This document shows positions 1-31,880 of a stretch of 32,000 bases of DNA, piece after piece. Below the pieces are notes generated by a model. That model did no database searches. It had not been told where the DNA came from and saw nothing but the letters and a program-made list of their open reading frames with translations. This DNA comes from Sinorhizobium meliloti (GTDB lineage: Bacteria > Pseudomonadota > Alphaproteobacteria > Rhizobiales > Rhizobiaceae). The stretch is from NCBI RefSeq assembly GCF_017876815.1, contig NZ_JAGIOS010000004.1:197538-229537 (forward strand). Reading direction: 5' to 3'. The position numbers and the translations under genes were made by a program. Position 1 is the first letter of the stretch. The number at the start of each line of letters is the position of its first letter.

Positions 1-1237
1 CCCGGCTCGATGCGGAAGCCGCGGATCTTCACCTGGTCGTCATTGCGGCCCAGAAACTCGAGATTGCCGTCCGGCAGGTAGCGCGCCAGGTCGCCGCTCC
101 GGTACATCCGGGCGCCGGCCTTGCCGCTGAACGGATCCGCCAGGAACCGCTCCGCCGTCAGATCCGGACGGTTCAGGTAGCCGCGCGCCACCCCCGCCCC
201 GCCGATATAAAGCTCACCAACCGCCCCAAACGGAACCGGCTGACCATGGCCGTCAAGCACATAAAGCCGCGTGTTCGCAATCGGACGGCCGATATGTGGC
301 ACAGCGTCACTGAAGAGCTGTCCCGACGTTGCCACCACAGTAACTTCCGTAGGACCATAGTTGTTTATTAACTTGAGAGGCGACGGTAGCCGGGAAGGCA
401 CACGCTGCAGACGATCACCGCCAATAAGCAAGTACTCCAACAAGGGAGTTACCAGCTCGCCTTCCAATGCCGTTGCAGCCAGCGGCGTGACTAAAAAGGC
501 GGCGTCCAGTGGTTGATCACGCCACCATTGCAGGAGAAGCAGAGGATCTCCTGCTGCCGGTCTGGGTGGGAGCAGCAATGTGCTGCGATTGTATAATGCA
601 GACCATAACTCCCAAGCGCTGGCATCGAATGCCACTCCAGCCGTGAGTGTGCAGCAGGTTTCTGGTTGCGGACAAAATGTTTGCACATGCCATGCTGTGA
701 GATTGACCAGGCTTTGATGCTCGACCATGACGCCCTTAGGCGTGCCGGTGGATCCCGATGTGTAGATGACATAGGCGAGATTGCGGGCTGTCAGGCCGAG
801 GGCATGCGGGTCGGGATCGTCAGCGGACTGGTCGGCCCAGGCGGGCATGGCCGTATCGAGATCGACCGCGCTCAGATCGGCGATTGCCTCGGCGCCCAAC
901 GCCGCGCGACCGGCGGCGTCGCAAAGCAGCAGCCGCGGGCCGGCATCGTCGAGCAACTGCCGCAGCCGTTCGCCGGGATAGGCCGGGTCGAGCGGCACAT
1001 AGGCGCCGCCGGCCTTGAGGATCGCCAGCAGTCCCACCACCATCGCCGGGCTGCGCTCGACGCAGATCGCCACTGGCTGGTCCGGCCTCACCCCGAGCCC
1101 GATCAGATGATGGGCCAGCCGGTTGGCATCGGCATTGAGCGCGCCATAGGAGATCGACTGCTCTTCGAAGACCAGTGCGACCGCGTCGGGCACCCGGCGC
1201 ACCTGCGCCTCGAACAGCGCATGCACGCAAAGATCCG
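1..1237 (-). other. Adenylation domain, module 10 (C-terminal part cut by window edge); specificity core 294..716; code DAWLLGNVVK = Leu-like
   Basis: Duplicate of module 4 at offset 19523. Shadow ORFs 173..358, 491..772 and 666..1646 are identical to 19696..19881, 20014..20295 and 20189..21169. Confidence 0.65.
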
Positions 1238-4200
1238 ACGGATAGTCCGCTTCCGTCCGGTTCAACTCCTCCAGCAGGTAGCTGCGCTCCTCAGCCGGAA
1301 GAATGTCGAGCTCGCGCACCGGCCTATCGGGCGCTCGCTCCAGCGCGTCGACCAGTTGCTCGAGCGCCCGCTGCATATAGCCGCAGATCCGATCGGCGGA
1401 GATCGGTTCGACCGCATCCGCCGTGAGCCCCAGCTCCTGACCAAAATCATCCACCGACAATGTCAGCGGGTAGTTGGTCCGTTCCTCGCCCCCCAGCCAT
1501 TCCATGCCGGACAGCACGTCGCTTGTTCCCTCGCCGGCCATGGCCGGCGTGTTGTGGCGATAGTTCAGCAGCGCACTGAACAGTGGCGCTGGTGCGGCAA
1601 TATCGCTGCAGCGTTGCGCCAATGCCAGCGAGGCATGCTCGTGTGAGAGCAATTCGGCCAGACGGGCGTGGGCGATACGCACACTTTCCTCGACCCCGGT
1701 CTCATCCAGATCCAGCCGCAACGGCAAGGTATTCATGAACAAGCCCATGGCACGGTCGGCGCCGGCACCCGCATGCATGCGGCCGAACAGCACCGTGCCG
1801 AACACCACCTGCTCGCGCCCGCTGCTCAGCGCCACCACCTGGGCCCAGGCCAGATGGCAAAGGCTAGCCAGACTCACCCCCAGCCGCCGCGCCTGGTGGC
1901 GCAGCCGATCGTTGAGCGCCTGCGGCAGCATCCGCCGTGCCTCGCGGGATCCGCGGCCGTCGCCGTAGACCTCGCTCAGAGCGAACGGCAGGGTCGGCTC
2001 GTCGATGTCGGCCAGCATCTCCCGGAAGAACGCTTCATGCGCTTTGGCATCCATGCCAAGCCGCGCCTGCGCCACCAGGTTGCGGAACGGCTGCGGCGCT
2101 GCAAGCTCATGCGCGCGCCCCTGCAGCACGGCCCGGACCTCGGCATGCATCACTTCGGCCGTCGTATGATCGCCGATCAGATGGTGCTGCAACACCAAAA
2201 GCAGCCAGCGCCCACTGCCCGGTTCGCGCGCGATCACGAACCGCATCAGCGGCGCCCGGCCAAGGTCGAGACGGTACTGGCGCGGATCGAACCGCCGCCT
2301 GAGCTCATCGGCGCCGGAACCATCACAGCCCTCCAGCTCGACCTCGAGCACATCCAAGGCCGCCTTGCGCCAGACAACCTGCGCCGGGCTCGACAGACCC
2401 TCCCAGACAAAGGCCGTGCGCAGAATGTCGTGGCGGTCGACCACCTGTTGAACCGCAGCAAGGTAGCGATCGAGCACACCCCGCTCGGCAAAGGCCATCT
2501 GCGACATCAGGAGATAGGGGTCACCCTGGGTTGCCAGCAAATGATGGAACAGAATGCCGTCCTGCAGCGGCGACAGGCCATAGATATCCTGGATATTGCC
2601 GACGCCGCCGGGCACCGTCGACACGATCCGGTCGATCTCCGGTTGGGTAAGATCGATCAGCGGCAGCATCTGCGGCGTGATCGCCGTACTCTGTTCCGTG
2701 ATCGGGTTGGCAGGCACCGCCACCTCCCGGTGGCTGCCAAGACTGGCGGCCAGATCGGCAAGCATCGGCTTTGCAAATACGGTGCGAACCTCGACCCCGA
2801 GCGACAGCCGCCGCAGACGCTCCATCATTTGAACGGCCAACAATGAGTGGCCGCCGAGTTCGAAGAAGTTGTCGTGGCGCCCGACCTGCTCGACGCCGAG
2901 AAGCTCGGCCCAGATCCCGGCCAGCAGCGTCTCGATCTCGCCCTGCGGCGCCTCGTAGGCCCGACGCGCATAGGCATCGTCGTCGGGGACCGGCAGCGCC
3001 TTGCGATCGAGCTTGCCGTTCACCGTCAGCGGCAGTGCATCCAGCCGCACGAAGGCCGACGGCACCATGTAGTCCGGTAGCAGGCCACCCAGATGCGCCC
3101 GCAACGACGCAGCAAGCCCGGCGCCATCGGCTTCGGCCGACCCGTCCGTCGTCTTCGCAACCACATAGGCGACGAGCCGCTTGTCGCCCGCCGCATCCGC
3201 GTGCGCCACCACCGCGGCATCGCCGACAAGCTCATGCTCCAGCAGCCGGGCGGCGATCTCGCCCGGCTCGATGCGGAAGCCGCGGATCTTCACCTGGTCG
3301 TCATTGCGGCCCAGAAACTCGAGATTGCCGTCCGGCAGGTAGCGCGCCAGGTCGCCGCTCCGGTACATCCGGGCGCCGGCCTTGCCGCTGAACCGATCCG
3401 CCAGGAACCGCTCCGCCGTCAGATCCGGACGGTTCAGGTAGCCGCGCGCCACCCCCGCCCCGCCGATATAAAGCTCACCAACCGCCCCAAACGGAACCGG
3501 CTGACCATGGCCGTCAAGCACATAAAGCCGCGTGTTCGCAATCGGACGGCCGATCGGCACATTCGTCGATGCGGAAAGATCTGCAGGGATGTCATGGAAA
3601 GCACAACCGACAACCGCTTCCGTCGGGCCATACTCGTTGACCATTCTAGCCGCCGGCTGGATCTGACGCCATAGCTCGACCGTCGAAGACGACAATGCCT
3701 CACCGCCAATGACGAGCACCTCCACCTGACTGGCATCTCCAGCCGACTGCAGTTGCTGTCCAAGAACATCCAGATGGCTCGGGGTGACATTGACCAGCCC
3801 GCACGGTGTGCCGACCCTTGACCTGATCCCCTCGACCTCGTCCCCCTCTTTCGTAAGCAATGCATGGCCGCCAGAGACCAAAGGCGCAAACAGGCTGTTG
3901 ACCGTGGCATCGAAGGCGAGCGAAGAGGAGACGACGGATGAGGATATGGGAGCGTAGCTCTCACGAGCCCAGCTTAGATAATTGGTCATCCCGCGATGCT
4001 CGACCATGACGCCCTTAGGCGTGCCGGTGGATCCCGATGTGTAGATGACATAGGCGAGATTGCGGGCTGTCAGGCCGAGGGCATGCGGGTCGGGATCGTC
4101 AGCGGACTGGTCGGCCCAGGCGGGCATGGCCGTATCGAGATCGACCGCGCTCAGATCGGCGATTGCCTCGGCGCCCAACGCCGCGCGACCGGCGGCGTCG

Positions 4201-7200
4201 CAAAGCAGCAGCCGCGGGCCGGCATCGTCGAGCAACTGCCGCAGCCGTTCGCCGGGATAGGCCGGGTCGAGCGGCACATAGGCGCCGCCGGCCTTGAGGA
4301 TCGCCAGCAGTCCCACCACCATCGCCGGGCTGCGCTCGACGCAGATCGCCACTGGCTGGTCCGGCCTCACCCCGAGCCCGATCAGATGATGGGCCAGCCG
4401 GTTGGCATCGGCATTGAGCGCGCCATAGGAGATCGACTGCTCTTCGAAGACCAGTGCGACCGCGTCGGGCACCCGGCGCACCTGCGCCTCGAACAGCGCA
4501 TGCACGCAAAGATCCGACGGATAGTCCGCTTCCGTCCGGTTCAACTCCTCCAGCAGGTAGCTGCGCTCGTCGGGAGGCAGGATGTCCAGCTCGGACACCG
4601 GCTGCTCGGCATCGGCAAGCATCGCCCGCAGCAGCGCCAGCAGATAACCACATTGCCGCTCGATCGTCGCCCGGTCGAACAACGCCGTCGCATAACCGAG
4701 AGTCCCGGCGATGGCCTCGCCCTGCTCTCCCAGGTTCAGTTCCAGATCGAACTTGACCTGATCGAGCCCCTCGCCCGCAGCCTCCACCTGCAGCCCCGGC
4801 AGGTCCAATGACCCGCCGGTGTTGTTCTGCCAGGCCAGTCCCACCTGGAACAACGGCGTGTGACCGAGAGCCCGGGGCGGCTGGACGATCTCCACCACCT
4901 GCTCGAACGGCAGGTCCTGATGATCCTGCGCAGTCAAGGCCGCGCGCCGCGCCCGTTCCAGGAGATCGGACACGCTCGGCTCGCCCGACAGATCGATTCG
5001 AACCGCCAGGGTGTTGACGAAGAAACCGATTAGATCCTCGATCTCGCGGCGACGACGATTGGCCGTCGGCACACCGATCACGATATCGTCCTGCCCGGAC
5101 AGGCGCGACAGCACCGCAGCCCAGGCCGCCAGCACTGTCATGAACAACGTCGTGCCATGCTGCCGGCTCAGCCGCTTGAGCCCGCGCGTCAGAGCCTCAT
5201 CGATGATAACCGGCACGCTGGCTCCGGCAAACGACTGCTGTGCCGGCCGCGGCCGGTCCGTCGGCAGCGCCAGACGGGCCGGGGCGCCAGACAGGGTGTC
5301 GCGCCAATACTGCGCCTGACGCTGCAGCCGCTCGCCGGACAACCATTGCCGTTGCCAGGCGGCATAATCCGGATACTGGATCGCCAGCGGCGGCAAAGGA
5401 TCGTCCTCTCCAGCCTCAAACGCGCGGTAAAGGCTGCTGAGCTCGCGCACCAGCACCCCCATCGACCAGCCGTCCGAGACTATGTGATGCTGCGTCAGCA
5501 GAAAGACGTGCTCCTCATCCGCCAGCCGGATCAGCCGGCCGCGGATCAGCGGCTCGCGCGCCAGATCGAACGGCGTGCGCGCCTCTTCTTGGCACAGATC
5601 CAAAAGCGCGGCTTGCGCATCCGGCCTGTCCCGCAGATCGTGCTCGACCACCGGCAATCCCCTGTCCCCGGACAAAATCTGGACCTGCGGGTCATCCTCT
5701 CCGGCGACGAACGTGCAGCGCAGCGCCTCGTGACGGGCAAACAGGCGGTCAAGGCTGCGCCGCCAGGCGACACGGTCGAGTCTGCCCTGCAGTCGCCACC
5801 CCAGGGGAATGTTATAGTTCGTGCTGTCTTCGTCCAACTGTGCCAAGAACCAGAGACGCTGCTGCGAATAGGACAGCGGAAGCGCACCATCACGTCCGAC
5901 TGGCATGATGACCGGTGCTGTCTGCGCACCAGAACCGTTCAGCACTTCGCCAACACTTAGCGCCAAATCGGCCAATGTTGGCTTGGCGAACAGGATCGCC
6001 AGCGGCAGCTCCACTGCCAAGGCCTCGGTCAGCCGGACGAGCACGCGCACCGCCAACAATGAGTGGCCGCCGAGCTCGAAGAAGTTGTCGTGGCGCCCGA
6101 CCTGCTCGACGCCGAGAAGCTCGGCCCAGATCCCGGCCAGCAGCGTCTCGATCTCGCCCTGCGGCGCCTCGTAGGCCCGACGCGCATAGGCATCGTCGTC
6201 GGGGACCGGCAGCGCCTTGCGGTCGAGCTTGCCGTTCACCGTCAGCGGCAGTGCATCCAGCCGCACGAAGGCCGACGGCACCATGTAGTCCGGTAGCAGG
6301 CCACCCAGATGCGCCCGCAACGACGCAGCAAGCCCGGCGCCATCGGCTTCGGCCGACCCGTCCGTCGTCTTCGCAACCACATAGGCGACGAGCCGCTTGT
6401 CGCCCGCCGCATCCGCGTGCGCCACCACCGCGGCATCGCCGACAAGCTCATGCTCCAGCAGCCGGGCGGCGATCTCGCCCGGCTCGATGCGGAAGCCGCG
6501 GATCTTCACCTGGTCGTCATTGCGGCCCAGAAACTCGAGATTGCCGTCCGGCAGGTAGCGCGCCAGGTCGCCGCTCCGGTACATCCGGGCGCCGGCCTTG
6601 CCGCTGAACGGATCCGCCAGGAACCGCTCCGCCGTCAGATCCGGACGGTTCAGGTAGCCGCGCGCCACCCCCGCCCCGCCGATATAAAGCTCACCAACCG
6701 CCCCAAACGGAACCGGCTGACCATGGCCGTCAAGCACATAAAGCCGCGTGTTCGCAATCGGACGGCCGATCGGCACATTCGTCGATGCGGAAAGATCTGC
6801 AGGGATGTCATGGAAAGCACAACCGACAACCGCTTCCGTCGGGCCATACTCGTTGACCATTCTAGCCGCCGGCTGGATCTGACGCCATAGCTCGACCGTC
6901 GAAGACGACAATGCCTCACCGCCAATGACGAGCACCTCCACCTGACTGGCATCTCCAGCCGACTGCAGTTGCTGTCCAAGAACATCCAGATGGCTCGGGG
7001 TGATTTTGACCAGGCTGCGGCCTAAGCCAAGCTCTACCTTAAGGTTTTCGGTTTCATTTCGGTTGGATATGAGATGTTCCTGCGCACCACAGATTAGAGG
7101 CGCGAACAGGCTGGTAATCGTGGCATCGAAGGCGAGCGAAGAGGAGACGACGGATGAGGATATGGGAGCGTAGCTCTCACGAGCCCAGCTTAGATAATTG

Positions 7201-10200
7201 GTCATCCCGCGATGCTCGACCATGACGCCCTTAGGCGTGCCGGTGGATCCCGATGTGTAGATGACATAGGCGAGATTGCGGGCTGTCAGGCCGAGGGCAT
7301 GCGGGTCGGGATCGTCAGCGGACTGGTCGGCCCAGGCGGGCATGGCTGCATCGAGATCGACCGCGCTCAGATCGTCGATTGCCTCGGCGCCCAACGCCGC
7401 GCGGCCGGCGGCGTCGCAAAGCAGCAGCCGCGGGCCGGCATCGTCGAGCAACTGCCGCAGCCGTTCGCCGGGATAGGCCGGGTCGAGCGGCACATAGGCG
7501 CCGCCGGCCTTGAGGATCGCCAGCAGTCCCACCACCATCGCCGGGCTGCGCTCGACGCAGATCGCCACTGGCTGGTCCGGCCTCACCCCGAGCCCGATCA
7601 GATGATGGGCCAGCCGGTTGGCATCGGCATTGAGCGCGCCATAGGAGATCGACTGCTCTTCGAAGACCAGTGCGACCGCGTCGGGCACCCGGCGCACCTG
7701 CGCCTCGAACAGCGCATGCACGCAAAGATCCGACGGATAGTCCGCTTCCGTCCGGTTCAACTCCTCCAGCAGGTAGCTGCGCTCGTCGGGAGGCAGGATG
7801 TCCAGCTCGGACACCGGCTGCTCGGCATCGGCAAGCATCGCCCGCAGCAGCGCCAGCAGATAACCACATTGCCGCTCGATCGTCGCCCGGTCGAACAACG
7901 CCGTCGCATAACCGAGAGTCCCGGCGATGGCCTCGCCCTGCTCTCCCAGGTTCAGTTCCAGATCGAACTTGACCTGATCGAGCCCCTCGCCCGCAGCCTC
8001 CACCTGCAGCCCCGGCAGGTCCAATGACCCGCCGGTGTTGTTCTGCCAGGCCAGTCCCACCTGGAACAACGGCGTGTGACCGAGAGCCCGGGGCGGCTGG
8101 ACGATCTCCACCACCTGCTCGAACGGCAGGTCCTGATGATCCTGCGCAGTCAAGGCCGCGCGCCGCGCCCGTTCCAGGAGATCGGACACGCTCGGCTCGC
8201 CCGACAGATCGATTCGAACCGCCAGGGTGTTGACGAAGAAACCGATTAGATCCTCGATCTCGCGGCGACGACGATTGGCCGTCGGCACACCGATCACGAT
8301 ATCGTCCTGCCCGGACAGGCGCGACAGCACCGCAGCCCAGGCCGCCAGCACTGTCATGAACAACGTCGTGCCATGCTGCCGGCTCAGCCGCTTGAGCCCG
8401 CGCGTCAGAGCCTCATCGATGATAACCGGCACGCTGGCTCCGGCAAACGACTGCTGTGCCGGCCGCGGCCGGTCCGTCGGCAGCGCCAGACGGGCCGGGG
8501 CGCCAGACAGGGTGTCGCGCCAATACTGCGCCTGACGCTGCAGCCGCTCGCCGGACAACCATTGCCGTTGCCAGGCGGCATAATCCGGATACTGGATCGC
8601 CAGCGGCGGCAAAGGATCGTCCTCTCCAGCCTCAAACGCGCGGTAAAGGCTGCTGAGCTCGCGCACCAGCACCCCCATCGACCAGCCGTCCGAGACTATG
8701 TGATGCTGCGTCAGCAGAAAGACGTGCTCCTCATCCGCCAGCCGGATCAGCCGGCCGCGGATCAGCGGCTCGCGCGCCAGATCGAACGGCGTGCGCGCCT
8801 CTTCTTGGCACAGATCCAAAAGCGCGGCTTGCGCATCCGGCCTGTCCCGCAGATCGTGCTCGACCACCGGCAATCCCCTGTCCCCGGACAAAATCTGGAC
8901 CTGCGGGTCATCCTCTCCGGCGACGAACGTGCAGCGCAGCGCCTCGTGACGGGCAAACAGGCGGTCAAGGCTGCGCCGCCAGGCGACACGGTCGAGTCTG
9001 CCCTGCAGTCGCCACCCCAGGGGAATGTTATAGTTCGTGCTGTCTTCGTCCAACTGTGCCAAGAACCAGAGACGCTGCTGCGAATAGGACAGCGGAAGCG
9101 CACCATCACGTCCGACTGGCATGATGACCGGTGCTGTCTGCGCACCAGAACCGTTCAGCACTTCGCCAACACTTAGCGCCAAATCGGCCAATGTTGGCTT
9201 GGCGAACAGGATCGCCAGCGGCAGCTCCACTGCCAAGGCCTCGGTCAGCCGGACGAGCACGCGCACCGCCAACAATGAGTGGCCGCCGAGCTCGAAGAAG
9301 TTGTCGTGGCGCCCGACCTGCTCGACGCCGAGAAGCTCGGCCCAGATCCCGGCCAGCAGCGTCTCGATCTCGCCCTGCGGCGCCTCGTAGGCCCGACGCG
9401 CATAGGCATCGTCGTCGGGGACCGGCAGCGCCTTGCGATCGAGCTTGCCGTTCACCGTCAGCGGCAGTGCATCCAGCCGCACGAAGGCCGACGGCACCAT
9501 GTAGTCCGGTAGCAGGCCACCCAGATGCGCCCGCAACGACGCAGCAAGCCCGGCGCCATCGGCTTCGGCCGACCCGTCCGTCGTCTTCGCAACCACATAG
9601 GCGACGAGCCGCTTGTCGCCCGCCGCATCCGCGTGCGCCACCACCGCGGCATCGCCGACAAGCTCATGCTCCAGCAGCCGGGCGGCGATCTCGCCCGGCT
9701 CGATGCGGAAGCCGCGGATCTTCACCTGGTCGTCATTGCGGCCCAGAAACTCGAGATTGCCGTCCGGCAGGTAGCGCGCCAGGTCGCCGCTCCGGTACAT
9801 CCGGGCGCCGGCCTTGCCGCTGAACGGATCCGCCAGGAACCGCTCCGCCGTCAGATCCGGACGGTTCAGGTAGCCGCGCGCCACCCCCGCCCCGCCGATA
9901 TAAAGCTCACCAACCGCCCCAAACGGAACCGGCTGACCATGGCCGTCCAGCAGATAGATCCGCGTGTTCGAGATCGGACGCCCGATCGTTTCGACAACAG
10001 CCTGTCCCCTCGGCATGCAAATCCAAGTCGAGTACGTCGTTGTCTCCGAAGGGGCGTACAGATTGCAAATCTTCTGGACGCGCGTGCTCTCGAATATCCT
10101 CTCGATTAGGTCTGCCTTCACCCGCTCGCCCGCCAAATTGATGACGCTTGCCGATGCCGGCACGGCTTTCTGGTTGACCAGAGCGGTGATCGCCGAGGGG

Positions 10201-13200
10201 ACCGTGTTGATCAAGGAGGCATCCACGGGCGTTCGGGCCAGCTTCAGTGCATCCTCGACGAGGTACAGCTTGCTTCCCTGCGAAAGCGGAAGGAAACACT
10301 CGTAAACGGACAGATCAAAACAGACCGAGGTCGAGAACAGCGTGCGCCTGATCTCTGATTCGGCAAACACGCCGCCACTCCAATGCAGCAGGTTCACTGT
10401 GTTCCGATGCTCGACCATGACGCCCTTAGGCGTGCCGGTGGATCCCGATGTGTAGATGACATAGGCGAGATTGCGGGCTGTCAGGCCGAGGGCATGCGGG
10501 TCGGGATCGTCAGCGGACTGGTCGGCCCAGGCGGGCATGGCCGTATCGAGATCGACCGCGCTCAGATCGGCGATTGCCTCGGCGCCCAACGCCGCGCGAC
10601 CGGCGGCGTCGCAAAGCAGCAGCCGCGGGCCGGCATCGTCGAGCAACTGCCGCAGCCGTTCGCCGGGATAGGCCGGGTCGAGCGGCACATAGGCGCCGCC
10701 GGCCTTGAGGATCGCCAGCAGTCCCACCACCATCGCCGGGCTGCGCTCGACGCAGATCGCCACTGGCTGGTCCGGCCTCACCCCGAGCCCGATCAGATGA
10801 TGGGCCAGCCGGTTGGCATCGGCATTGAGCGCGCCATAGGAGATCGACTGCTCTTCGAAGACCAGTGCGACCGCGTCGGGCACCCGGCGCACCTGCGCCT
10901 CGAACAGCGCATGCACGCAAAGATCCGACGGATAGTCCGCTTCCGTCCGGTTCAACTCCTCCAGCAGGTAGCTGCGCTCGTCGGGAGGCAGGATGTCCAG
11001 CTCGGACACCGGCTGCTCGGCATCGGCAAGCATCGCCCGCAGCAGCGCCAGCAGATAACCACATTGCCGCTCGATCGTCGCCCGGTCGAACAACGCCGTC
11101 GCATAACCGAGAGTCCCGGCGATGGCCTCGCCCTGCTCTCCCAGGTTCAGTTCCAGATCGAACTTGACCTGATCGAGCCCCTCGCCCGCAGCCTCCACCT
11201 GCAGCCCCGGCAGGTCCAATGACCCGCCGGTGTTGTTCTGCCAGGCCAGTCCCACCTGGAACAACGGCGTGTGACCGAGAGCCCGGGGCGGCTGGACGAT
11301 CTCCACCACCTGCTCGAACGGCAGGTCCTGATGATCCTGCGCAGTCAAGGCCGCGCGCCGCGCCCGTTCCAGGAGATCGGACACGCTCGGCTCGCCCGAC
11401 AGATCGATTCGAACCGCCAGGGTGTTGACGAAGAAACCGATTAGATCCTCGATCTCGCGGCGACGACGATTGGCCGTCGGCACACCGATCACGATATCGT
11501 CCTGCCCGGACAGGCGCGACAGCACCGCAGCCCAGGCCGCCAGCACTGTCATGAACAACGTCGTGCCATGCTGCCGGCTCAGCCGCTTGAGCCCGCGCGT
11601 CAGAGCCTCATCGATGATAACCGGCACGCTGGCTCCGGCAAACGACTGCTGTGCCGGCCGCGGCCGGTCCGTCGGCAGCGCCAGACGGGCCGGGGCGCCA
11701 GACAGGGTGTCGCGCCAATACTGCGCCTGACGCTGCAGCCGCTCGCCGGACAACCATTGCCGTTGCCAGGCGGCATAATCCGGATACTGGATCGCCAGCG
11801 GCGGCAAAGGATCGTCCTCTCCAGCCTCAAACGCGCGGTAAAGGCTGCTGAGCTCGCGCACCAGCACCCCCATCGACCAGCCGTCCGAGACTATGTGATG
11901 CTGCGTCAGCAGAAAGACGTGCTCCTCATCCGCCAGCCGGATCAGCCGGCCGCGGATCAGCGGCTCGCGCGCCAGATCGAACGGCGTGCGCGCCTCTTCT
12001 TGGCACAGATCCAAAAGCGCGGCTTGCGCATCCGGCCTGTCCCGCAGATCGTGCTCGACCACCGGCAATCCCCTGTCCCCGGACAAAATCTGGACCTGCG
12101 GGTCATCCTCTCCGGCGACGAACGTGCAGCGCAGCGCCTCGTGACGGGCAAACAGGCGGTCAAGGCTGCGCCGCCAGGCGACACGGTCGAGTCTGCCCTG
12201 CAGTCGCCACCCCAGGGGAATGTTATAGTTCGTGCTGTCTTCGTCCAACTGTGCCAAGAACCAGAGACGCTGCTGCGAATAGGACAGCGGAAGCGCACCA
12301 TCACGTCCGACTGGCATGATGACCGGTGCTGTCTGCGCACCAGAACCGTTCAGCACTTCGCCAACACTTAGCGCCAAATCGGCCAATGTTGGCTTGGCGA
12401 ACAGGATCGCCAGCGGCAGCTCCACTGCCAAGGCCTCGGTCAGCCGGACGAGCACGCGCACCGCCAACAATGAGTGGCCGCCGAGCTCGAAGAAGTTGTC
12501 GTGGCGCCCGACCTGCTCGACGCCGAGAAGCTCGGCCCAGATCCCGGCCAGCAGCGTCTCGATCTCGCCCTGCGGCGCCTCGTAGGCCCGACGCGCATAG
12601 GCATCGTCGTCGGGGACCGGCAGCGCCTTGCGGTCGAGCTTGCCGTTCACCGTCAGCGGCAGTGCATCCAGCCGCACGAAGGCCGACGGCACCATGTAGT
12701 CCGGTAGCAGGCCACCCAGATGCGCCCGCAACGACGCAGCAAGCCCGGCGCCATCGGCTTCGGCCGACCCGTCCGTCGTCTTCGCAACCACATAGGCGAC
12801 GAGCCGCTTGTCGCCCGCCGCATCCGCGTGCGCCACCACCGCGGCATCGCCGACAAGCTCATGCTCCAGCAGCCGGGCGGCGATCTCGCCCGGCTCGATG
12901 CGGAAGCCGCGGATCTTCACCTGGTCGTCATTGCGGCCCAGAAACTCGAGATTGCCGTCCGGCAGGTAGCGCGCCAGGTCGCCGCTCCGGTACATCCGGG
13001 CGCCGGCCTTGCCGCTGAACGGATCCGCCAGGAACCGCTCCGCCGTCAGATCCGGACGGTTCAGGTAGCCGCGCGCCACCCCCGCCCCGCCGATATAAAG
13101 CTCACCAACCGCCCCAAACGGAACCGGCTGACCATGACCGTCCAGAAGATAGATCCGAAGATCCGGAATCCGTTCGCCGATCGGACCGCATGAGCTGGAC

Positions 13201-15668
13201 GTATCAGACTTGTTAAGAAGCCGATAGGTCACATGCACAGTCGTCTCTGTGATGCCGTACATGTTGATCAGCCGTGGGGCATGCTCACAATGCCGTTCGA
13301 ACCACGGCTTAAGAGAGGAAGGCTCCAGGGCCTCGCCTCCAAAAATCAAATAGCGAAGCTGGTTGCGAACTCCACTCTCACGCTCGGCTTCGATCAGAGC
13401 TTTAAACGCCGAGGGCGTCTGGTTGAGCACCGTGGCGCTTGACTTGCAAACCAGCGTATAAAAGTCGGGAGCAGAGCGAGCTATATGCTCCGGTACGAGA
13501 ACCAGACGGCCACCACAGTGGAGCGCTCCCCACAACTCCCAAACCGAGAAGTCGAATGAGAAAGAATGAAACAGGCACCAGACATCGCGCTCGTTGAAAT
13601 CGTACCAGCTCCGCGTCGCCTCAAACAAACGGACAATTTGCGCATGCTCGACCATGACGCCCTTAGGCGTGCCGGTGGATCCCGATGTGTAGATGACATA
13701 GGCGAGATTGCGGGCTGTCAGGCCGAGGGCATGCGGGTCGGGATCGTCAGCGGACTGGTCGGCCCAGGCGGGCGTGGCCGCATCGAGATCGACCGCGCTC
13801 AGATCGTCGATTGCCTCGGCGCCCAACGCCGCGCGGCCGGCGGCGTCGCAAAGCAGCAGCCGCGGGCCGGCATCGTCGAGCAACTGCCGCAGCCGTTCGC
13901 CGGGATAGGCCGGGTCGAGCGGCACATAGGCGCCGCCGGCCTTGAGGATCGCCAGCAGTCCCACCACCATCGCCGGGCTGCGCTCGACGCAGATCGCCAC
14001 TGGCTGGTCCGGCCTCACCCCGAGCCCGATCAGATGATGGGCCAGCCGGTTGGCATCGGCATTGAGCGCGCCATAGGAGATCGACTGCTCTTCGAAGACC
14101 AGTGCGACCGCGTCGGGCACCCGGCGCACCTGCGCCTCGAACAGCGCATGCACGCAAAGATCCGACGGATAGTCCGCTTCCGTCCGGTTCAACTCCTCCA
14201 GCAGGTAGCTGCGCTCGTCGGGAGGCAGGATGTCCAGCTCGGACACCGGCTGCTCGGCATCGGCAAGCATCGCCCGCAGCAGCGCCAGCAGATAACCACA
14301 TTGCCGCTCGATCGTCGCCCGGTCGAACAACGCCGTCGCATAACCGAGAGTCCCGGCGATGGCCTCGCCCTGCTCTCCCAGGTTCAGTTCCAGATCGAAC
14401 TTGACCTGATCGAGCCCCTCGCCCGCAGCCTCCACCTGCAGCCCCGGCAGGTCCAATGACCCGCCGGTGTTGTTCTGCCAGGCCAGTCCCACCTGGAACA
14501 ACGGCGTGTGACCGAGAGCCCGGGGCGGCTGGACGATCTCCACCACCTGCTCGAACGGCAGGTCCTGATGATCCTGCGCAGTCAAGGCCGCGCGCCGCGC
14601 CCGTTCCAGGAGATCGGACACGCTCGGCTCGCCCGACAGATCGATTCGAACCGCCAGGGTGTTGACGAAGAAACCGATTAGATCCTCGATCTCGCGGCGA
14701 CGACGATTGGCCGTCGGCACACCGATCACGATATCGTCCTGCCCGGACAGGCGCGACAGCACCGCAGCCCAGGCCGCCAGCACTGTCATGAACAACGTCG
14801 TGCCATGCTGCCGGCTCAGCCGCTTGAGCCCGCGCGTCAGAGCCTCATCGATGATAACCGGCACGCTGGCTCCGGCAAACGACTGCTGTGCCGGCCGCGG
14901 CCGGTCCGTCGGCAGCGCCAGACGGGCCGGGGCGCCAGACAGGGTGTCGCGCCAATACTGCGCCTGACGCTGCAGCCGCTCGCCGGACAACCATTGCCGT
15001 TGCCAGGCGGCATAATCCGGATACTGGATCGCCAGCGGCGGCAAAGGATCGTCCTCTCCAGCCTCAAACGCGCGGTAAAGGCTGCTGAGCTCGCGCACCA
15101 GCACCCCCATCGACCAGCCGTCCGAGACTATGTGATGCTGCGTCAGCAGAAAGACGTGCTCCTCATCCGCCAGCCGGATCAGCCGGCCGCGGATCAGCGG
15201 CTCGCGCGCCAGATCGAACGGCGTGCGCGCCTCTTCTTGGCACAGATCCAAAAGCGCGGCTTGCGCATCCGGCCTGTCCCGCAGATCGTGCTCGACCACC
15301 GGCAATCCCCTGTCCCCGGACAAAATCTGGACCTGCGGGTCATCCTCTCCGGCGACGAACGTGCAGCGCAGCGCCTCGTGACGGGCAAACAGGCGGTCAA
15401 GGCTGCGCCGCCAGGCGACACGGTCGAGCCTGCCCTGCAGTCGCCACCCCAGGGGAATGTTATAGTTCGTGCTGTCTTCGTCCAACTGTGCCAAGAACCA
15501 GAGACGCTGCTGCGAATAGGACAGCGGAAGCGCACCATCACGGCTGATCTTCGGGATCAGTGTGGCCTTTAGGTTGCTGCCTCGACTTCGCGCTCTGGCC
15601 AGGGAAAGGAGCTTAGCTAAGCCGTCTGAATCCAGTTCTTCTAATTGGCCGATGACAAAATCCGTCAT
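1..15668 (-). CDS. Non-ribosomal peptide synthetase, gene 2 (5' 15.7 kb; 3' end beyond position 1): dock-C-A(Thr)-T-C-A(Cys)-T-C-A(Asn)-T-C-A(orphan code)-T-C/E-A(Leu-like, cut by window edge)
   Basis: Not in the ORF track because there is no in-window stop. Hand translation from ATG 15668-15666 gives [75 protein letters not shown]..., the same C-domain sequence as in the 5133-aa ORF. The His codons of all GVMVEH (A3) anchors here (717, 3996, 7212, 10407, 13644) are in phase with ATG 15668. The divergent stretches I hand-translated (all of core 13143-13643 and the 7004-7118 patch) have no stops, and the rest of core 6771-7211 matches core 3555-3995. 1-6731 duplicates an open part of the 5133-aa ORF. 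Confidence 0.85.
1313..2677 (-). other. Condensation domain, dual C/E-like type, module 10
   Basis: Duplicate of 20836..22200. HHLLATQGD at 2520..2546; HH of HHLIGDH at 2181..2186. Confidence 0.7.
2741..2960 (-). other. Thiolation domain, module 9, type 2
   Basis: The reverse complement of 2790..2852 reads [21 protein letters not shown]. Ser codon 2844..2846. Confidence 0.85.
2993..4516 (-). other. Adenylation domain, module 9; specificity core 3555..3995; code DANNVGEVGK (no assignment)
   Basis: Duplicate of module 3 at offset 19523. Shadow ORF 3434..3964 is identical to 22957..23487. Confidence 0.7.
4592..5892 (-). other. Condensation domain, LCL-like, module 9
   Basis: Duplicate of 24115..25415 at offset 19523. 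HH at 5484..5489. Confidence 0.8.
5957..6176 (-). other. Thiolation domain, module 8, type 1
   Basis: Duplicate of 25480..25699. Ser codon 6060..6062. Confidence 0.85.
6209..7732 (-). other. Adenylation domain, module 8; specificity core 6771..7211 (mosaic); code DATKVGEVGK = Asn
   Basis: Hand translation gives [57 protein letters not shown]... The rest of the core is identical to modules 3 and 9. T239 is the codon at 7113-7115 and K278 the codon at 7005-7007. Confidence 0.78.
7004..7118 (-). other. 115-bp divergent low-GC patch inside the module 8 A core (the A4-A5 segment holding code positions 239 and 278)
   Basis: Base-by-base comparison of 6997-7126 with 3781-3910. The flanks are identical and the first and last mismatches are at 7004 and 7118. 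The two segments have equal length (130 bp between shared anchors). Confidence 0.85.
7808..9108 (-). other. Condensation domain, LCL-like, module 8
   Basis: Shadow ORFs 8373..9176 and 8762..9145 are identical to the other LCL copies. HH at 8700..8705. Confidence 0.8.
9173..9392 (-). other. Thiolation domain, module 7, type 1
   Basis: The shadow-ORF translation matches the other type 1 copies. Ser codon 9276..9278. Confidence 0.85.
9425..10927 (-). other. Adenylation domain, module 7; specificity core 9948..10406; code DLYNNALTYK = Cys-type
   Basis: The + strand shadow ORFs 9964..10305 and 9907..10299 are identical to those at 16536..16877 and 26271..26612, so this is the same core as in modules 2 and 5. 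Confidence 0.72.
11003..12303 (-). other. Condensation domain, LCL-like, module 7
   Basis: Shadow ORFs 11568..12371 and 11957..12340 are identical to those of the LCL copies inside the 5133-aa ORF. HH at 11895..11900. Confidence 0.8.
12368..12587 (-). other. Thiolation domain, module 6, type 1
   Basis: Shadow ORFs 12316..12585 and 12474..12707 are identical to the copies at 25428..25697 and 25586..25819. Ser codon 12471..12473. Confidence 0.85.
12620..14164 (-). other. Adenylation domain, module 6; specificity core 13143..13643; code DFWNIGMVHK = Thr
   Basis: Hand translation of the minus strand gives [169 protein letters not shown]. This yields the textbook Thr code. Confidence 0.8.
14240..15540 (-). 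other. Condensation domain, LCL-like, module 6 (first domain of gene 2)
   Basis: Hand translation from 15542 downward gives [44 protein letters not shown]... HH of HHIVSDGWS is at 15132..15137. Shadow ORF 14805..15572 matches the other LCL copies except for one substitution. Confidence 0.8.
15543..15668 (-). other. N-terminal 42-aa leader of gene 2 before the C domain: putative acceptor docking element
   Basis: [42 protein letters not shown] precedes [17 protein letters not shown]. Confidence 0.5.
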
Positions 15669-18600
15669 TTCAGACTCCTAGAAGAAAGCAGTTTCTGAAG
15701 TTCGTGGCTATCAAATTCTTGTGCAATCAAGCTGATGGAAGATTCACGGGCTAGCTCGGCCAATGTTGGCTTGGCGAACAGGATCGCCAGCGGCAGCTCC
15801 ACTGCCAAGGCCTCGGTCAGCCGGACGAGCACGCGCACCGCCAACAATGAGTGGCCGCCGAGTTCGAAGAAGTTGTCGTGGCGCCCGACCCGCTCGACGC
15901 CGAGAAGCTCGGCCCAGATCCCGGCCAGCAGCGTCTCGATCTCGCCCTGCGGCGCCTCGTAGGCCCGACGCGCATAGGCATCGTCGTCGGGGACCGGCAG
16001 CGCCTTGCGATCGAGCTTGCCGTTCACCGTCAGCGGCAGTGCATCCAGCCGCACGAAGGCCGACGGCACCATGTAGTCCGGCAGCAGGCCACCCAGATGC
16101 GCCCGCAACGACGCAGCAAGCCCGGCGCCATCGGCTTCGGCCGACCCGTCCGTCGTCTTCGCAACCACATAGGCGACGAGCCGCTTGTCGCCCGCCGCAT
16201 CCGCGTGCGCCACCACCGCGGCATCGCCGACAAGCTCATGCTCCAGCAGCCGGGCGGCGATCTCGCCCGGCTCGATGCGGAAGCCGCGGATCTTCACCTG
16301 GTCGTCATTGCGGCCCAGAAACTCGAGATTGCCGTCCGGCAGGTAGCGCGCCAGGTCGCCGCTCCGGTACATCCGGGCGCCGGCCTTGCCGCTGAACGGA
16401 TCCGCCAGGAACCGCTCCGCCGTCAGATCCGGACGGTTCAGGTAGCCGCGCGCCACCCCCGCCCCGCCGATATAAAGCTCACCAACCGCCCCAAACGGAA
16501 CCGGCTGACCATGGCCGTCCAGCAGATAGATCCGCGTGTTCGAGATCGGACGCCCGATCGTTTCGACAACAGCCTGTCCCCTCGGCATGCAAATCCAAGT
16601 CGAGTACGTCGTTGTCTCCGAAGGGGCGTACAGATTGCAAATCTTCTGGACGCGCGTGCTCTCGAATATCCTCTCGATTAGGTCTGCCTTCACCCGCTCG
16701 CCCGCCAAATTGATGACGCTTGCCGATGCCGGCACGGCTTTCTGGTTGACCAGAGCGGTGATCGCCGAGGGGACCGTGTTGATCAAGGAGGCATCCACGG
16801 GCGTTCGGGCCAGCTTCAGTGCATCCTCGACGAGGTACAGCTTGCTTCCCTGCGAAAGCGGAAGGAAACACTCGTAAACGGACAGATCAAAACAGACCGA
16901 GGTCGAGAACAGCGTGCGCCTGATCTCTGATTCGGCAAACACGCCGCCACTCCAATGCAGCAGGTTCACTGTGTTCCGATGCTCGACCATGACGCCCTTA
17001 GGCGTGCCGGTGGATCCCGATGTGTAGATGACATAGGCGAGATTGCGGGCTGTCAGGCCGAGGGCATGCGGGTCGGGATCGTCAGCGGACTGGTCGGCCC
17101 AGGCGGGCATGGCCGTATCGAGATCGACCGCGCTCAGATCGGCGATTGCCTCGGCGCCCAACGCCGCGCGACCGGCGGCGTCGCAAAGCAGCAGCCGCGG
17201 GCCGGCATCGTCGAGCAACTGCCGCAGCCGTTCGCCGGGATAGGCCGGGTCGAGCGGCACATAGGCGCCGCCGGCCTTGAGGATCGCCAGCAGTCCCACC
17301 ACCATCGCCGGGCTGCGCTCGACGCAGATCGCCACTGGCTGGTCCGGCCTCACCCCGAGCCCGATCAGATGATGGGCCAGCCGGTTGGCATCGGCATTGA
17401 GCGCGCCATAGGAGATCGACTGCTCTTCGAAGACCAGTGCGACCGCGTCGGGCACCCGGCGCACCTGCGCCTCGAACAGCGCATGCACGCAAAGATCCGA
17501 CGGATAGTCCGCTTCCGTCCGGTTCAACTCCTCCAGCAGGTAGCTGCGCTCCTCAGCCGGAAGAATGTCGAGCTCGCGCACCGGCCTATCGGGCGCTCGC
17601 TCCAGCGCGTCGACCAGTTGCTCGAGCGCCCGCTGCATATAGCCGCAGATCCGATCGGCGGAGATCGGTTCGACCGCATCCGCCGTGAGCCCCAGCTCCT
17701 GACCAAAATCATCCACCGACAATGTCAGCGGGTAGTTGGTCCGTTCCTCGCCCCCCAGCCATTCCATGCCGGACAGCACGTCGCTTGTTCCCTCGCCGGC
17801 CATGGCCGGCGTGTTGTGGCGATAGTTCAGCAGCGCACTGAACAGTGGCGCTGGTGCGGCAATATCGCTGCAGCGTTGCGCCAATGCCAGCGAGGCATGC
17901 TCGTGTGAGAGCAATTCGGCCAGACGGGCGTGGGCGATACGCACACTTTCCTCGACCCCGGTCTCATCCAGATCCAGCCGCAACGGCAAGGTATTCATGA
18001 ACAAGCCCATGGCACGGTCGGCGCCGGCACCCGCATGCATGCGGCCGAACAGCACCGTGCCGAACACCACCTGCTCGCGCCCGCTGCTCAGCGCCACCAC
18101 CTGGGCCCAGGCCAGATGGCAAAGGCTAGCCAGACTCACCCCCAGCCGCCGCGCCTGGTGGCGCAGCCGATCGTTGAGCGCCTGCGGCAGCATCCGCCGT
18201 GCCTCGCGGGATCCGCGGCCGTCGCCGTAGACCTCGCTCAGAGCGAACGGCAGGGTCGGCTCGTCGATGTCGGCCAGCATCTCCCGGAAGAACGCTTCAT
18301 GCGCTTTGGCATCCATGCCAAGCCGCGCCTGCGCCACCAGGTTGCGGAACGGCTGCGGCGCTGCAAGCTCATGCGCGCGCCCCTGCAGCACGGCCCGGAC
18401 CTCGGCATGCATCACTTCGGCCGTCGTATGATCGCCGATCAGATGGTGCTGCAACACCAAAAGCAGCCAGCGCCCACTGCCCGGTTCGCGCGCGATCACG
18501 AACCGCATCAGCGGCGCCCGGCCAAGGTCGAGACGGTACTGGCGCGGATCGAACCGCCGCCTGAGCTCATCGGCGCCGGAACCATCACAGCCCTCCAGCT

Positions 18601-21600
18601 CGACCTCGAGCACATCCAAGGCCGCCTTGCGCCAGACAACCTGCGCCGGGCTCGACAGACCCTCCCAGACAAAGGCCGTGCGCAGAATGTCGTGGCGGTC
18701 GACCACCTGTTGAACCGCAGCAAGGTAGCGATCGAGCACACCCCGCTCGGCAAAGGCCATCTGCGACATCAGGAGATAGGGGTCACCCTGGGTTGCCAGC
18801 AAATGATGGAACAGAATGCCGTCCTGCAGCGGCGACAGGCCATAGATATCCTGGATATTGCCGACGCCGCCGGGCACCGTCGACACGATCCGGTCGATCT
18901 CCGGTTGGGTAAGATCGATCAGCGGCAGCATCTGCGGCGTGATCGCCGTACTCTGTTCCGTGATCGGGTTGGCAGGCACCGCCACCTCCCGGTGGCTGCC
19001 AAGACTGGCGGCCAGATCGGCAAGCATCGGCTTTGCAAATACGGTGCGAACCTCGACCCCGAGCGACAGCCGCCGCAGACGCTCCATCATTTGAACGGCC
19101 AACAATGAGTGGCCGCCGAGCTCGAAGAAGTTGTCGTGGCGCCCGACCTGCTCGACGCCGAGAAGCTCGGCCCAGATCCCGGCCAGCAGCGTCTCGATCT
19201 CGCCCTGCGGCGCCTCGTAGGCCCGACGCGCATAGGCATCGTCGTCGGGGACCGGCAGCGCCTTGCGGTCGAGCTTGCCGTTCACCGTCAGCGGCAGTGC
19301 ATCCAGCCGCACGAAGGCCGACGGCACCATGTAGTCCGGTAGCAGGCCACCCAGATGCGCCCGCAACGACGCAGCAAGCCCGGCGCCATCGGCTTCGGCC
19401 GACCCGTCCGTCGTCTTCGCAACCACATAGGCGACGAGCCGCTTGTCGCCCGCCGCATCCGCGTGCGCCACCACCGCGGCATCGCCGACAAGCTCATGCT
19501 CCAGCAGCCGGGCGGCGATCTCGCCCGGCTCGATGCGGAAGCCGCGGATCTTCACCTGGTCGTCATTGCGGCCCAGAAACTCGAGATTGCCGTCCGGCAG
19601 GTAGCGCGCCAGGTCGCCGCTCCGGTACATCCGGGCGCCGGCCTTGCCGCTGAACGGATCCGCCAGGAACCGCTCCGCCGTCAGATCCGGACGGTTCAGG
19701 TAGCCGCGCGCCACCCCCGCCCCGCCGATATAAAGCTCACCAACCGCCCCAAACGGAACCGGCTGACCATGGCCGTCAAGCACATAAAGCCGCGTGTTCG
19801 CAATCGGACGGCCGATATGTGGCACAGCGTCACTGAAGAGCTGTCCCGACGTTGCCACCACAGTAACTTCCGTAGGACCATAGTTGTTTATTAACTTGAG
19901 AGGCGACGGTAGCCGGGAAGGCACACGCTGCAGACGATCACCGCCAATAAGCAAGTACTCCAACAAGGGAGTTACCAGCTCGCCTTCCAATGCCGTTGCA
20001 GCCAGCGGCGTGACTAAAAAGGCGGCGTCCAGTGGTTGATCACGCCACCATTGCAGGAGAAGCAGAGGATCTCCTGCTGCCGGTCTGGGTGGGAGCAGCA
20101 ATGTGCTGCGATTGTATAATGCAGACCATAACTCCCAAGCGCTGGCATCGAATGCCACTCCAGCCGTGAGTGTGCAGCAGGTTTCTGGTTGCGGACAAAA
20201 TGTTTGCACATGCCATGCTGTGAGATTGACCAGGCTTTGATGCTCGACCATGACGCCCTTAGGCGTGCCGGTGGATCCCGATGTGTAGATGACATAGGCG
20301 AGATTGCGGGCTGTCAGGCCGAGGGCATGCGGGTCGGGATCGTCAGCGGACTGGTCGGCCCAGGCGGGCATGGCCGTATCGAGATCGACCGCGCTCAGAT
20401 CGGCGATTGCCTCGGCGCCCAACGCCGCGCGACCGGCGGCGTCGCAAAGCAGCAGCCGCGGGCCGGCATCGTCGAGCAACTGCCGCAGCCGTTCGCCGGG
20501 ATAGGCCGGGTCGAGCGGCACATAGGCGCCGCCGGCCTTGAGGATCGCCAGCAGTCCCACCACCATCGCCGGGCTGCGCTCGACGCAGATCGCCACTGGC
20601 TGGTCCGGCCTCACCCCGAGCCCGATCAGATGATGGGCCAGCCGGTTGGCATCGGCATTGAGCGCGCCATAGGAGATCGACTGCTCTTCGAAGACCAGTG
20701 CGACCGCGTCGGGCACCCGGCGCACCTGCGCCTCGAACAGCGCATGCACGCAAAGATCCGACGGATAGTCCGCTTCCGTCCGGTTCAACTCCTCCAGCAG
20801 GTAGCTGCGCTCCTCAGCCGGAAGAATGTCGAGCTCGCGCACCGGCCTATCGGGCGCTCGCTCCAGCGCGTCGACCAGTTGCTCGAGCGCCCGCTGCATA
20901 TAGCCGCAGATCCGATCGGCGGAGATCGGTTCGACCGCATCCGCCGTGAGCCCCAGCTCCTGACCAAAATCATCCACCGACAATGTCAGCGGGTAGTTGG
21001 TCCGTTCCTCGCCCCCCAGCCATTCCATGCCGGACAGCACGTCGCTTGTTCCCTCGCCGGCCATGGCCGGCGTGTTGTGGCGATAGTTCAGCAGCGCACT
21101 GAACAGTGGCGCTGGTGCGGCAATATCGCTGCAGCGTTGCGCCAATGCCAGCGAGGCATGCTCGTGTGAGAGCAATTCGGCCAGACGGGCGTGGGCGATA
21201 CGCACACTTTCCTCGACCCCGGTCTCATCCAGATCCAGCCGCAACGGCAAGGTATTCATGAACAAGCCCATGGCACGGTCGGCGCCGGCACCCGCATGCA
21301 TGCGGCCGAACAGCACCGTGCCGAACACCACCTGCTCGCGCCCGCTGCTCAGCGCCACCACCTGGGCCCAGGCCAGATGGCAAAGGCTAGCCAGACTCAC
21401 CCCCAGCCGCCGCGCCTGGTGGCGCAGCCGATCGTTGAGCGCCTGCGGCAGCATCCGCCGTGCCTCGCGGGATCCGCGGCCGTCGCCGTAGACCTCGCTC
21501 AGAGCGAACGGCAGGGTCGGCTCGTCGATGTCGGCCAGCATCTCCCGGAAGAACGCTTCATGCGCTTTGGCATCCATGCCAAGCCGCGCCTGCGCCACCA

Positions 21601-31066: not shown

Positions 31067-31880
31067 AGGCTAGCCAGACTCACCCCCAGCCGCCGCGCCT
31101 GGTGGCGCAGCCGATCGTTGAGCGCCTGCGGCAGCATCCGCCGTGCCTCGCGGGATCCGCGGCCGTCGCCGTAGACCTCGCTCAGAGCGAACGGCAGGGT
31201 CGGCTCGTCGATGTCGGCCAGCATCTCCCGGAAGAACGCTTCATGCGCTTTGGCATCCATGCCAAGCCGCGCCTGCGCCACCAGGTTGCGGAACGGCGGC
31301 GCTGCAAGCTCATGCGCGCGCCCCTGCAGCACGGCCCGGACCTCGGCATGCATCACTTCGGCCGTCGTATGATCGCCGATCAGATGGTGCTGCAACACCA
31401 AAAGCAGCCAGCGCCCACTGCCCGGTTCGCGCGCGATCACGAACCGCATCAGCGGCGCCCGGCCAAGGTCGAGACGGTACTGGCGCGGATCGAACCGCCG
31501 CCTGAGCTCATCGGCGCCGGAACCATCACAGCCCTCCAGCTCGACCTCGAGCACATCCAAGGCCGCCTTGCGCCAGACAACCTGCGCCGGGCTCGACAGA
31601 CCCTCCCAGACAAAGGCCGTGCGCAGAATGTCGTGGCGGTCGACCACCTGTTGAACCGCAGCAAGGTAGCGATCGAGCACACCCCGCTCGGCAAAGGCCA
31701 TCTGCGACATCAGGAGATAGGGGTCACCCTGGGTTGCCAGCAAATGATGGAACAGAATGCCGTCCTGCAGCGGCGACAGGCCATAGATATCCTGGATATT
31801 GCCGACGCCGCCGGGCACCGTCGACACGATCCGGTCGATCTCCGGTTGGGTAAGATCGATCAGCGGCAGCATCTGCGGCG
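30520..31880 (-). other. Condensation domain, dual C/E-like type, upstream of module 1; disrupted by a 1-nt deletion and carrying a 3-nt in-frame deletion
   Basis: Motifs: [27 protein letters not shown] (HHLLATQGD at 31723..31749), [19 protein letters not shown] (HH at 31384..31389). Edges are approximate. Confidence 0.7.

Follow-up and report, generated by a model that had tools for sequence, protein, structure and literature searches.

The window analysed here, a stretch of 32,000 nucleotides of Sinorhizobium meliloti DNA, carries a pair of giant nonribosomal peptide synthetase (NRPS) genes whose ten modules are copies of one another over most of their length. In the adenylation (A) domain of module 8, this uniformity is interrupted by a tract of only 115 bp (7004..7118, minus strand), and with the tract two residues of the specificity code change. 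The question raised by this locus is how so short a difference arose, and how it has lasted, between modules that are otherwise the same. The comparisons described below point to a probable answer: the tract is an old island between two Asn-type sister cores, its flanks were homogenised by gene conversion, and the tract itself was kept by selection.

The 115-bp tract and its specificity codons

Positions 6600-7400 of the window were aligned without gaps to module 9 (offset -3216) and to module 3 (offset +16307), which are identical to each other across the homologous stretch. The alignment contained 58 differences, 54 of them within 7004..7118 and the remaining four at 6610, 7347, 7349 and 7375. 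The tract encodes residues I238 to I279, and its counterparts at 3788..3902 in module 9 and 23311..23425 in module 3, both also on the minus strand, are identical to each other. The flanks on the same strand at 6611..7003 (3' of the tract in the coding sense) and 7119..7346 (5' of it) are 100% identical to modules 3 and 9. An initial annotation of this DNA had described the variable core of module 8 (6771..7211, minus strand, motifs A3 to A6) as identical to the cores of modules 3 and 9 (3555-3995 and 23078-23518) except in this tract, and had stated that differences spread over the whole core would speak against that description. The computed alignment bore the description out, since none of the other 326 core positions differed, compared with 54/115 in the tract, and the differences formed a single tract (binomial P = 7e-41). 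Both tract peptides quoted in that annotation were recovered, and the two forms are in frame, equally long and free of stop codons. An assembly artefact was ruled out, as many complete plasmid records that were deposited separately contain this mosaic.

The codon of specificity position 239 (7113..7115, minus strand) is ACC (Thr) in module 8 and AAC (Asn) in modules 3 and 9, and that of position 278 (7005..7007, minus strand) is AAA (Lys) in module 8 and AAT (Asn) in modules 3 and 9. Each replacement requires one base, and the codon coordinates and residue changes reported previously were correct. The two forms are referred to below as T/K (T239/K278) and N/N (N239/N278). Within the tract, 13 amino acids are conserved, and 6 of them have different codons in the two forms. 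All 6 lie in the interior, where they make up 6 of the 7 conserved residues, whereas the conserved amino acids near the edges keep the same codons. At the level of sequence, the codon differences at conserved interior residues indicate old divergence, with inward erosion from both sides, and not recent point mutation in place.

The ten-residue codes were obtained by alignment to GrsA-PheA numbering. The reference fragment used returned the canonical code DAWTIAAICK when the numbering was checked. The alignment confirmed the previously reported codes DATKVGEVGK for module 8 and DANNVGEVGK for modules 3 and 9, which agree at 8/10 positions. The pocket positions 235, 236, 299, 301, 322, 330 and 331 are the same in both forms, and only 239 and 278 differ. 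The module 8 code corresponds to the Asn code DATK[LV]GEVGK (Stachelhaus positions 235-517), and DATKVGEVGK is listed as Asn in a paper on the zeamine NRPS, an assignment itself predicted from the code (PMC3547906). No occurrence of DANNVGEVGK was found in the searchable literature. Judged by these codes, module 8 most likely loads Asn, and modules 3 and 9 most likely load a different small polar residue.

Concerted evolution of the flanks and age of the two forms

A 1.2-kb query around the tract matched conjugative plasmids of S. meliloti and S. medicae at 98-99.7% identity (best match, 99.7% to pMl1 of S. meliloti ml46) and Rhizobium plasmids at about 93%. On these matches, the source of the window is a conjugative accessory plasmid of the Sinorhizobium type. 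The T/K tract was found in 13 plasmid records, of which 11 are from Sinorhizobium (99-100%) and two are Rhizobium sp. 007 plasmids (95% and 88%). The N/N tract was found in 43 plasmid records, including those of R. leguminosarum and R. ruizarguesonis, with Bradyrhizobium at 71-84%. Plasmid records with a core of this family number roughly 45. Among 185,579 species genomes, the only close relatives were the drafts of S. kostiense and Ensifer sp., at 85% amino acid identity. Compared with the window, 12/115 tract nucleotides and 19-21/326 flank nucleotides differed in these.

The cores were compared among the window, two loci of Rhizobium sp. 007 (L001 and L002), S. medicae WSM419 (L003) and S. 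meliloti ml46 (L004). In both L002 and WSM419, 55/115 tract positions distinguish the two forms, compared with 3/326 and 2/326, respectively, in the flanks. When the flanks of each form were compared between the window and L002, 23 to 24 sites differed per form, and 22 of these were common to both forms (hypergeometric P = 7e-31). Between the window and WSM419, 5 to 7 sites differed, and 5 were common to both forms (5/5; hypergeometric P = 7e-10). Had the mosaic formed once and then been inherited vertically, independent flank substitutions would be expected in each form. Because the substitutions are shared instead, the flanks must have been homogenised within each lineage, and the tract has remained distinct in all of them. 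Within genomes, the flanks differ at 0, 2-3 and 2 positions, the last over 3.5 kb. At the protein level, the flanks group by genome and the tracts by type. In its sequence pattern, the locus is a case of concerted evolution by intragenic gene conversion.

The tract and the flanks have diverged to a similar extent between lineages, by 4-5% and 7%, respectively, in L002 and by 12% and 11% in L001. This similarity indicates that the two-form state is older than the lineage splits. A comparable pair was found in Bradyrhizobium sp. 27S5, in which adjacent T/K and N/N modules have 43 differences from codon 238/239 to codon 278 and otherwise 2 over 3.5 kb. The alignments thereby establish, at sequence level, a mosaic that is old, that recurs and whose flanks evolve in concert. 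The initial annotation had attributed the tract to a very short gene conversion or horizontal transfer. Homologous recombination between modules does shape the region, but a recent event did not hold up, as the two-form tract is shared with S. medicae, Rhizobium sp. 007 and S. kostiense/Ensifer and is present in parallel in Bradyrhizobium.

The edges of the island vary slightly among strains. Most have the right edge at 7118, but it is at 7115 in S. meliloti 1132, in which codon 238 is the N/N-type GTC. The left edge is at 6989-6999 in L002, L003 and L045, compared with 7004 in the window. In no strain compared does the homogenisation cross codon 239 or 278. The edges abut the conserved motifs FDAT and ITPSHL.

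Origin and maintenance of the island

The low GC content of the tract had been read as a foreign mark. The counts given for this, 26/60 for positions 7021-7080 and 40/60 for 3781-3840, were right, but the homologous line is 3805-3864 (36/60), so that the comparison was offset by 24 nucleotides. Over the whole tract, the GC count is 57/115 in module 8 and 70/115 in modules 3 and 9. Low GC is common to all variable cores, which have a GC content of 0.54-0.59 and a third-position GC content (GC3) of 0.52-0.75, compared with gene-wide values of 0.653 and 0.78, and other 117-nt windows reach the same minimum as the tract. In Bradyrhizobium sp. 27S5, it is the N/N tract that is the poorer one (0.46, compared with 0.51 for T/K and 0.67 for the locus). 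Low GC as a foreign signature was rejected on the basis of GC and GC3 over all cores and all 117-nt windows. The GC-poor cores could reflect either GC-biased gene conversion of the scaffold or a separate origin of the cores.

A search for a donor, proposed in the initial annotation, gave none. In tblastn searches of 72,556 plasmids, nothing exceeded 57% outside the T/K group of Sinorhizobium and Rhizobium sp. 007. A word-index-free search of 1.84 billion representative proteins reached no more than 62%, over 55 residues that include 16 from conserved motifs, and the homologue search with the 55-amino-acid tract peptide gave three candidates, all fragments. The best tract-only match outside the rhizobial NRPS family was 54%, to a protein from a metagenome-assembled genome of Acidobacteriaceae. 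No donor was found in the 185,579 species genomes, where S. kostiense and Ensifer sp. were the sole close relatives. Other K278 cores, the DGTK (Asp-like) cores of ml46 and Bradyrhizobium, were considered as an intragenomic donor and rejected, their tracts being unrelated. The marks of a recent horizontal acquisition are thus missing: there is no compositional anomaly unique to the tract, no donor was found in the searches above, and the tract is present in close relatives.

The proposed direction of change, from an orphan core to an Asn core, was not supported. Relative to the nearest outgroup, the T/K tract has 54% identity and the flanks 60%, compared with 33% for the N/N tract. In a panel of 125 cores sharing E322, V330 and G331, taken from the best 150 hits to a T/K query and therefore biased, all have K278 and about 95% are T239/K278. 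If anything, these comparisons suggest that the N/N form is the derived one. When the tract interiors were compared without the code positions, they formed two clades, one with the T/K tracts of Sinorhizobium, Ensifer and Rhizobium sp. 007 and the other a general clade in which N/N, T/K and T/D forms from Mesorhizobium, R. mayense, Bradyrhizobium and Paraburkholderia are mixed. The intermixing in the general clade indicates that the code positions also flip by point mutation within the family.

In the explanation favoured here, recombination between the near-identical modules would keep these uniform as an ongoing concerted evolution. The core of module 8 and that of modules 3 and 9 would belong to a single Asn-type family as old sister forms, homogenised by gene conversion or unequal crossing-over up to codons 239 and 278, and the tract would be the unconverted remainder. 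A conversion crossing codon 239 or 278 would produce a hybrid pocket or alter the loaded residue and would be removed by selection. A conversion wholly inside the 108-bp interval would need both of its ends in sequence with 47% mismatches, which homologous recombination should disfavour, and the interior of the island would stay diverged by linkage. The island may have started either as an old paralogue with overwritten flanks or as an ancient short import from a diverged relative. We infer a role of selection in keeping the island and a difference in substrate between the two forms.

Several observations weigh against this explanation. With codes that are alike at 8/10 positions, both forms could still load Asn. 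In L001, a T/K core stands beside a T239/D278 core, and the flanks of these are not homogenised (106/326 differences). The position of the edges is by itself not discriminating, since an import that recombined within FDAT and ITPSHL would give the same apparent edges. Within the family, the T/K tracts of Sinorhizobium and its close relatives stand apart, with 33-49% identity to the other tracts compared with 0.5-0.73 among those, and an outlier of this kind would also be expected from an old import from outside the family.

Such an import, though ancient and single, differs from the old-island explanation solely in the beginning of the island and not in its upkeep. Residues 238-279 of an N/N core would have been replaced by a diverged Asn-type tract in the ancestor of Sinorhizobium, Ensifer and Rhizobium sp. 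007, and the tract would then have been maintained. The separate clade of the Sinorhizobium T/K interiors agrees with this origin, as do the tract motifs E-x-EN-L and GRRL[IV]KI, which occur also in an Acidobacteriaceae Asn-type domain, and partial Acore substitutions with breaks near the core motifs are common in NRPS evolution (PMC8097286). However, the plasmid, protein and genome searches turned up no T/K-clade core in flanks of its own that could be a source lineage, and the T/K tract and the flanks resemble the outgroup to a similar degree, as if both had one history. An ancient import is considered unlikely. A recent origin is very hard to credit, in which a low-GC donor supplied a very short conversion or transfer tract whose insertion switched an orphan N/N core to Asn. 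The sharp in-frame bounds, the GC difference between the two tracts and the published Asn code would fit it. Yet 13 plasmids from two genera carry the tract at 88-100%, its divergence is close to that of the flanks, all variable cores are poor in GC, other 117-nt windows are equally low, and in Bradyrhizobium the N/N tract is the lower one. No donor was found among the plasmids, species genomes and representative proteins searched.

It is also improbable that the island is a neutral relic, in which Asn, or an amino acid near it, is the substrate of both forms and the 47% mismatch alone blocks recombination, with no part for selection. The agreement of the codes at 8/10 positions would be compatible with this, and the code positions could be tolerant, as similar tract backgrounds within the family are found with either T or N at 239 and with K, N or D at 278. 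However, conversions that start in the identical flanks could swap the 115-bp heterology as a whole, and entire 441-bp cores have evidently been shuffled among module positions in relatives. The island has nevertheless persisted in several lineages whose flanks have diverged by at least 7-11%, and Bradyrhizobium retains a comparable pair. In addition, the T/K module is mostly single-copy, and the order Thr-Ala-T/K-N/N-Leu is common to ml46 and the window.

The island may have a further meaning, which is put forward only tentatively. The 38-residue stretch between positions 239 and 278 might be a natural minimal specificity cassette, sufficient within a module that is otherwise the same to switch between Asn and another, possibly nonproteinogenic, substrate, and rhizobial plasmid NRPSs might keep such cassettes and occasionally exchange them across genera. 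If so, the unit available for engineering would be about 4 times smaller than the flavodoxin-like subdomain.

The synthetase and its relation to known systems

The two NRPS genes correspond to two long open frames with repeated Pfam domains. The upstream frame (15665..31066, or 15668-31069, minus strand) holds modules 1 to 5, and the downstream frame (3..15677, minus strand) holds modules 6 to 10 and continues beyond the left end of the window. Both frames contain repeats of the Condensation, AMP-binding, AMP-binding_C and PP-binding domains. The A domains match PF00501 (AMP-binding) and PF13193 (the C-terminal domain) with E-values of 1e-175 to 1e-243, stand in condensation-adenylation-thiolation modules, contain the motifs A3 (SGSTGxPKG), A4 (FDxS), A5 (NxYGPTE) and A6 (GELxIGG), and have NRPS A domains as their closest relatives in the PDB. 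They are NRPS adenylation domains of the AMP-binding superfamily. The ATG of the downstream gene (15668-15666) overlaps the stop codon of the upstream gene (ATGA, 15665-15668), which suggests translational coupling of the two genes. The downstream protein begins with a short leader outside any domain, which could be a docking element.

A 300-nt segment is repeated 10 times at a spacing of 3.2-3.3 kb and an identity of 98-100%. Aligned module by module, the modules are about 100% alike except in the A-domain core (420-462 bp, motifs A3 to A6) and in the condensation domain. The ten variable cores, all on the minus strand, are at 294-716, 3555-3995, 6771-7211, 9987-10406, 13182-13643, 16559-16978, 19817-20239, 23078-23518, 26294-26713 and 29489-29923. 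Besides the codes of modules 3, 8 and 9, the following were obtained: DILQLGLIWK (Gly) for module 1, DLYNNALTYK for modules 2, 5 and 7, DAWLLGNVVK for module 4 and DFWNIGMVH- (Thr) for module 6; the partial core of module 10 is of the same type as that of module 4 (DAWL...).

The condensation domains are of two types, of which the common one carries HHIVSDG. The alternative type, with an N-terminal HHLLATQGD and with HHLIGDH, fits the pattern of dual epimerisation/condensation (E/C) domains. Domains of the alternative type are located at about 880-2850, 17140-19110, 20400-22370 and 30800-32000 (minus strand), that is, after modules 3, 4 and 9 and before module 1. A link between the N/N or T/K form and the type of the downstream condensation domain (dual E/C or LCL) was considered and rejected, as it is true in the window but fails in WSM419 and L001. 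The most upstream domain of the dual E/C type has a 1-bp deletion at 30977/30978 that, compared with the other copies, changes CATGCGGGTG to CATG-GGGTG. The deletion shifts the frame and divides the NRPS into open reading frames 30943-31998 and 15665-31066, and the 5' end of the upstream open frame is thus due to this deletion. It may be a genuine pseudogene lesion, or else the run of G was sequenced or assembled wrongly. About 320 bp upstream of it in the coding sense, an in-frame deletion of 3 bp was found (31297/31298).

In annotated relatives, the same pair of NRPS genes adjoins genes for a phosphopantetheinyl transferase and a SagB-family dehydrogenase. The two NRPS genes measure 26.7 and 26.7 kb on pSMED03 of S. 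medicae WSM419 and 20.3 and 33.2 kb on pMl1 of S. meliloti ml46. The order of modules differs between the window, WSM419 and ml46, and ml46 has an additional DGTK (Asp-like) core that is not present in the window. These differences in size and order indicate frequent gain, loss and reshuffling of modules through recombination between repeats. L001 (354221-361906 of Rhizobium sp. 007 plasmid unnamed4) is a 7.7-kb NRPS remnant between IS630 and IS6 transposases. In the draft genomes of Paraburkholderia mimosarum, Mesorhizobium abyssinicae, Bradyrhizobium spp., Rhizobium mayense and R. calliandrae (L010-L017), variable cores of this NRPS family form isolated contigs of 427-1541 bp, presumably by collapse of the identical scaffolds in assembly. 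Because of such isolated contigs, NRPS clusters of this family are probably undercounted and misassembled in draft genomes.

Literature searches on this cluster, on pSMED03 and on Sinorhizobium NRPSs on accessory plasmids gave nothing relevant. The locus also flags an orphan natural product of nodule bacteria, made by a plasmid-borne (conjugative) synthetase with 10 modules in the window and with annotated NRPS genes that total about 53 kb in relatives. Should different residues be loaded by modules 8 and 9, the two modules amount to a natural controlled experiment, as their adenylation and thiolation domains are otherwise only four scattered bases apart. Specificity would then be set by one 38-residue segment, or perhaps by two single-base changes, which bears on the minimal size of an NRPS swap. 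The island would also be a clear and datable example of selection, here presumed, holding a tiny segment against pervasive gene conversion.

Exchange of the Acore or flavodoxin-like subdomain has reportedly been described for hormaomycin, by Crusemann et al. in 2013, and by Kries et al. in 2015. The cores of about 441 bp found in this NRPS exemplify that unit in its classic form, and full cores such as 6771-7211 match it when compared with other module types. The island does not correspond to this unit, a segment from about A4 to A5/A6 with most of the code positions, as its differences cover only residues 238-279. Unlike such swaps, the difference between module 8 and modules 3 and 9 is a subpart of the unit with positions 239 and 278 only, and it points to retention. 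The event had initially been called much finer than domain or subdomain exchange; this is right for its size, 38 residues and two code positions, but what it appears to reflect is retention under homogenisation and not a demonstrated swap. Partial Acore substitutions are known to change specificity while keeping the C-A linker, Asub and T interfaces, with breaks near conserved motifs (Baunach et al. 2021, PMC8097286), and are described as a route of NRPS diversification (PMC9205934).

In the microcystin synthetase, tracts of 167, 707 and 1029 bp and point mutations in the binding pocket alter the specificity of A domains (Shishido et al. 2013, PMC3640908). In that system, chemical analysis confirmed the products and donors were inferred, whereas no donor was found for the island. 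The island is shorter than these tracts and recurs across genera with nearly the same edges. The zeamine A domains Zmn A3/A4 have a ten-residue code identical to that of module 8, in both cases Asn by prediction from the code (PMC3547906).

The closest parallel is found in NRPS and polyketide synthase modules, in which paralogues within a cluster are closer than orthologues and segments tied to function stay different, as is the case here (Medema et al. 2014, PMC4256081). In the model proposed for them, functionally diverged domains escape concerted evolution through stabilising selection or through reduced recombination at diverged sequence. Unlike the whole domains of that study, the segment that escaped here is 115 bp (38 residues) long and bounded by two specificity codons, and the homogenised background is extreme, at about 100% over kilobases and 10 modules. 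The phenomenon is thus of a known kind, and this instance of it is unusually small, with 38 residues and 2/10 code positions, lies in a uniform background and recurs across genera.

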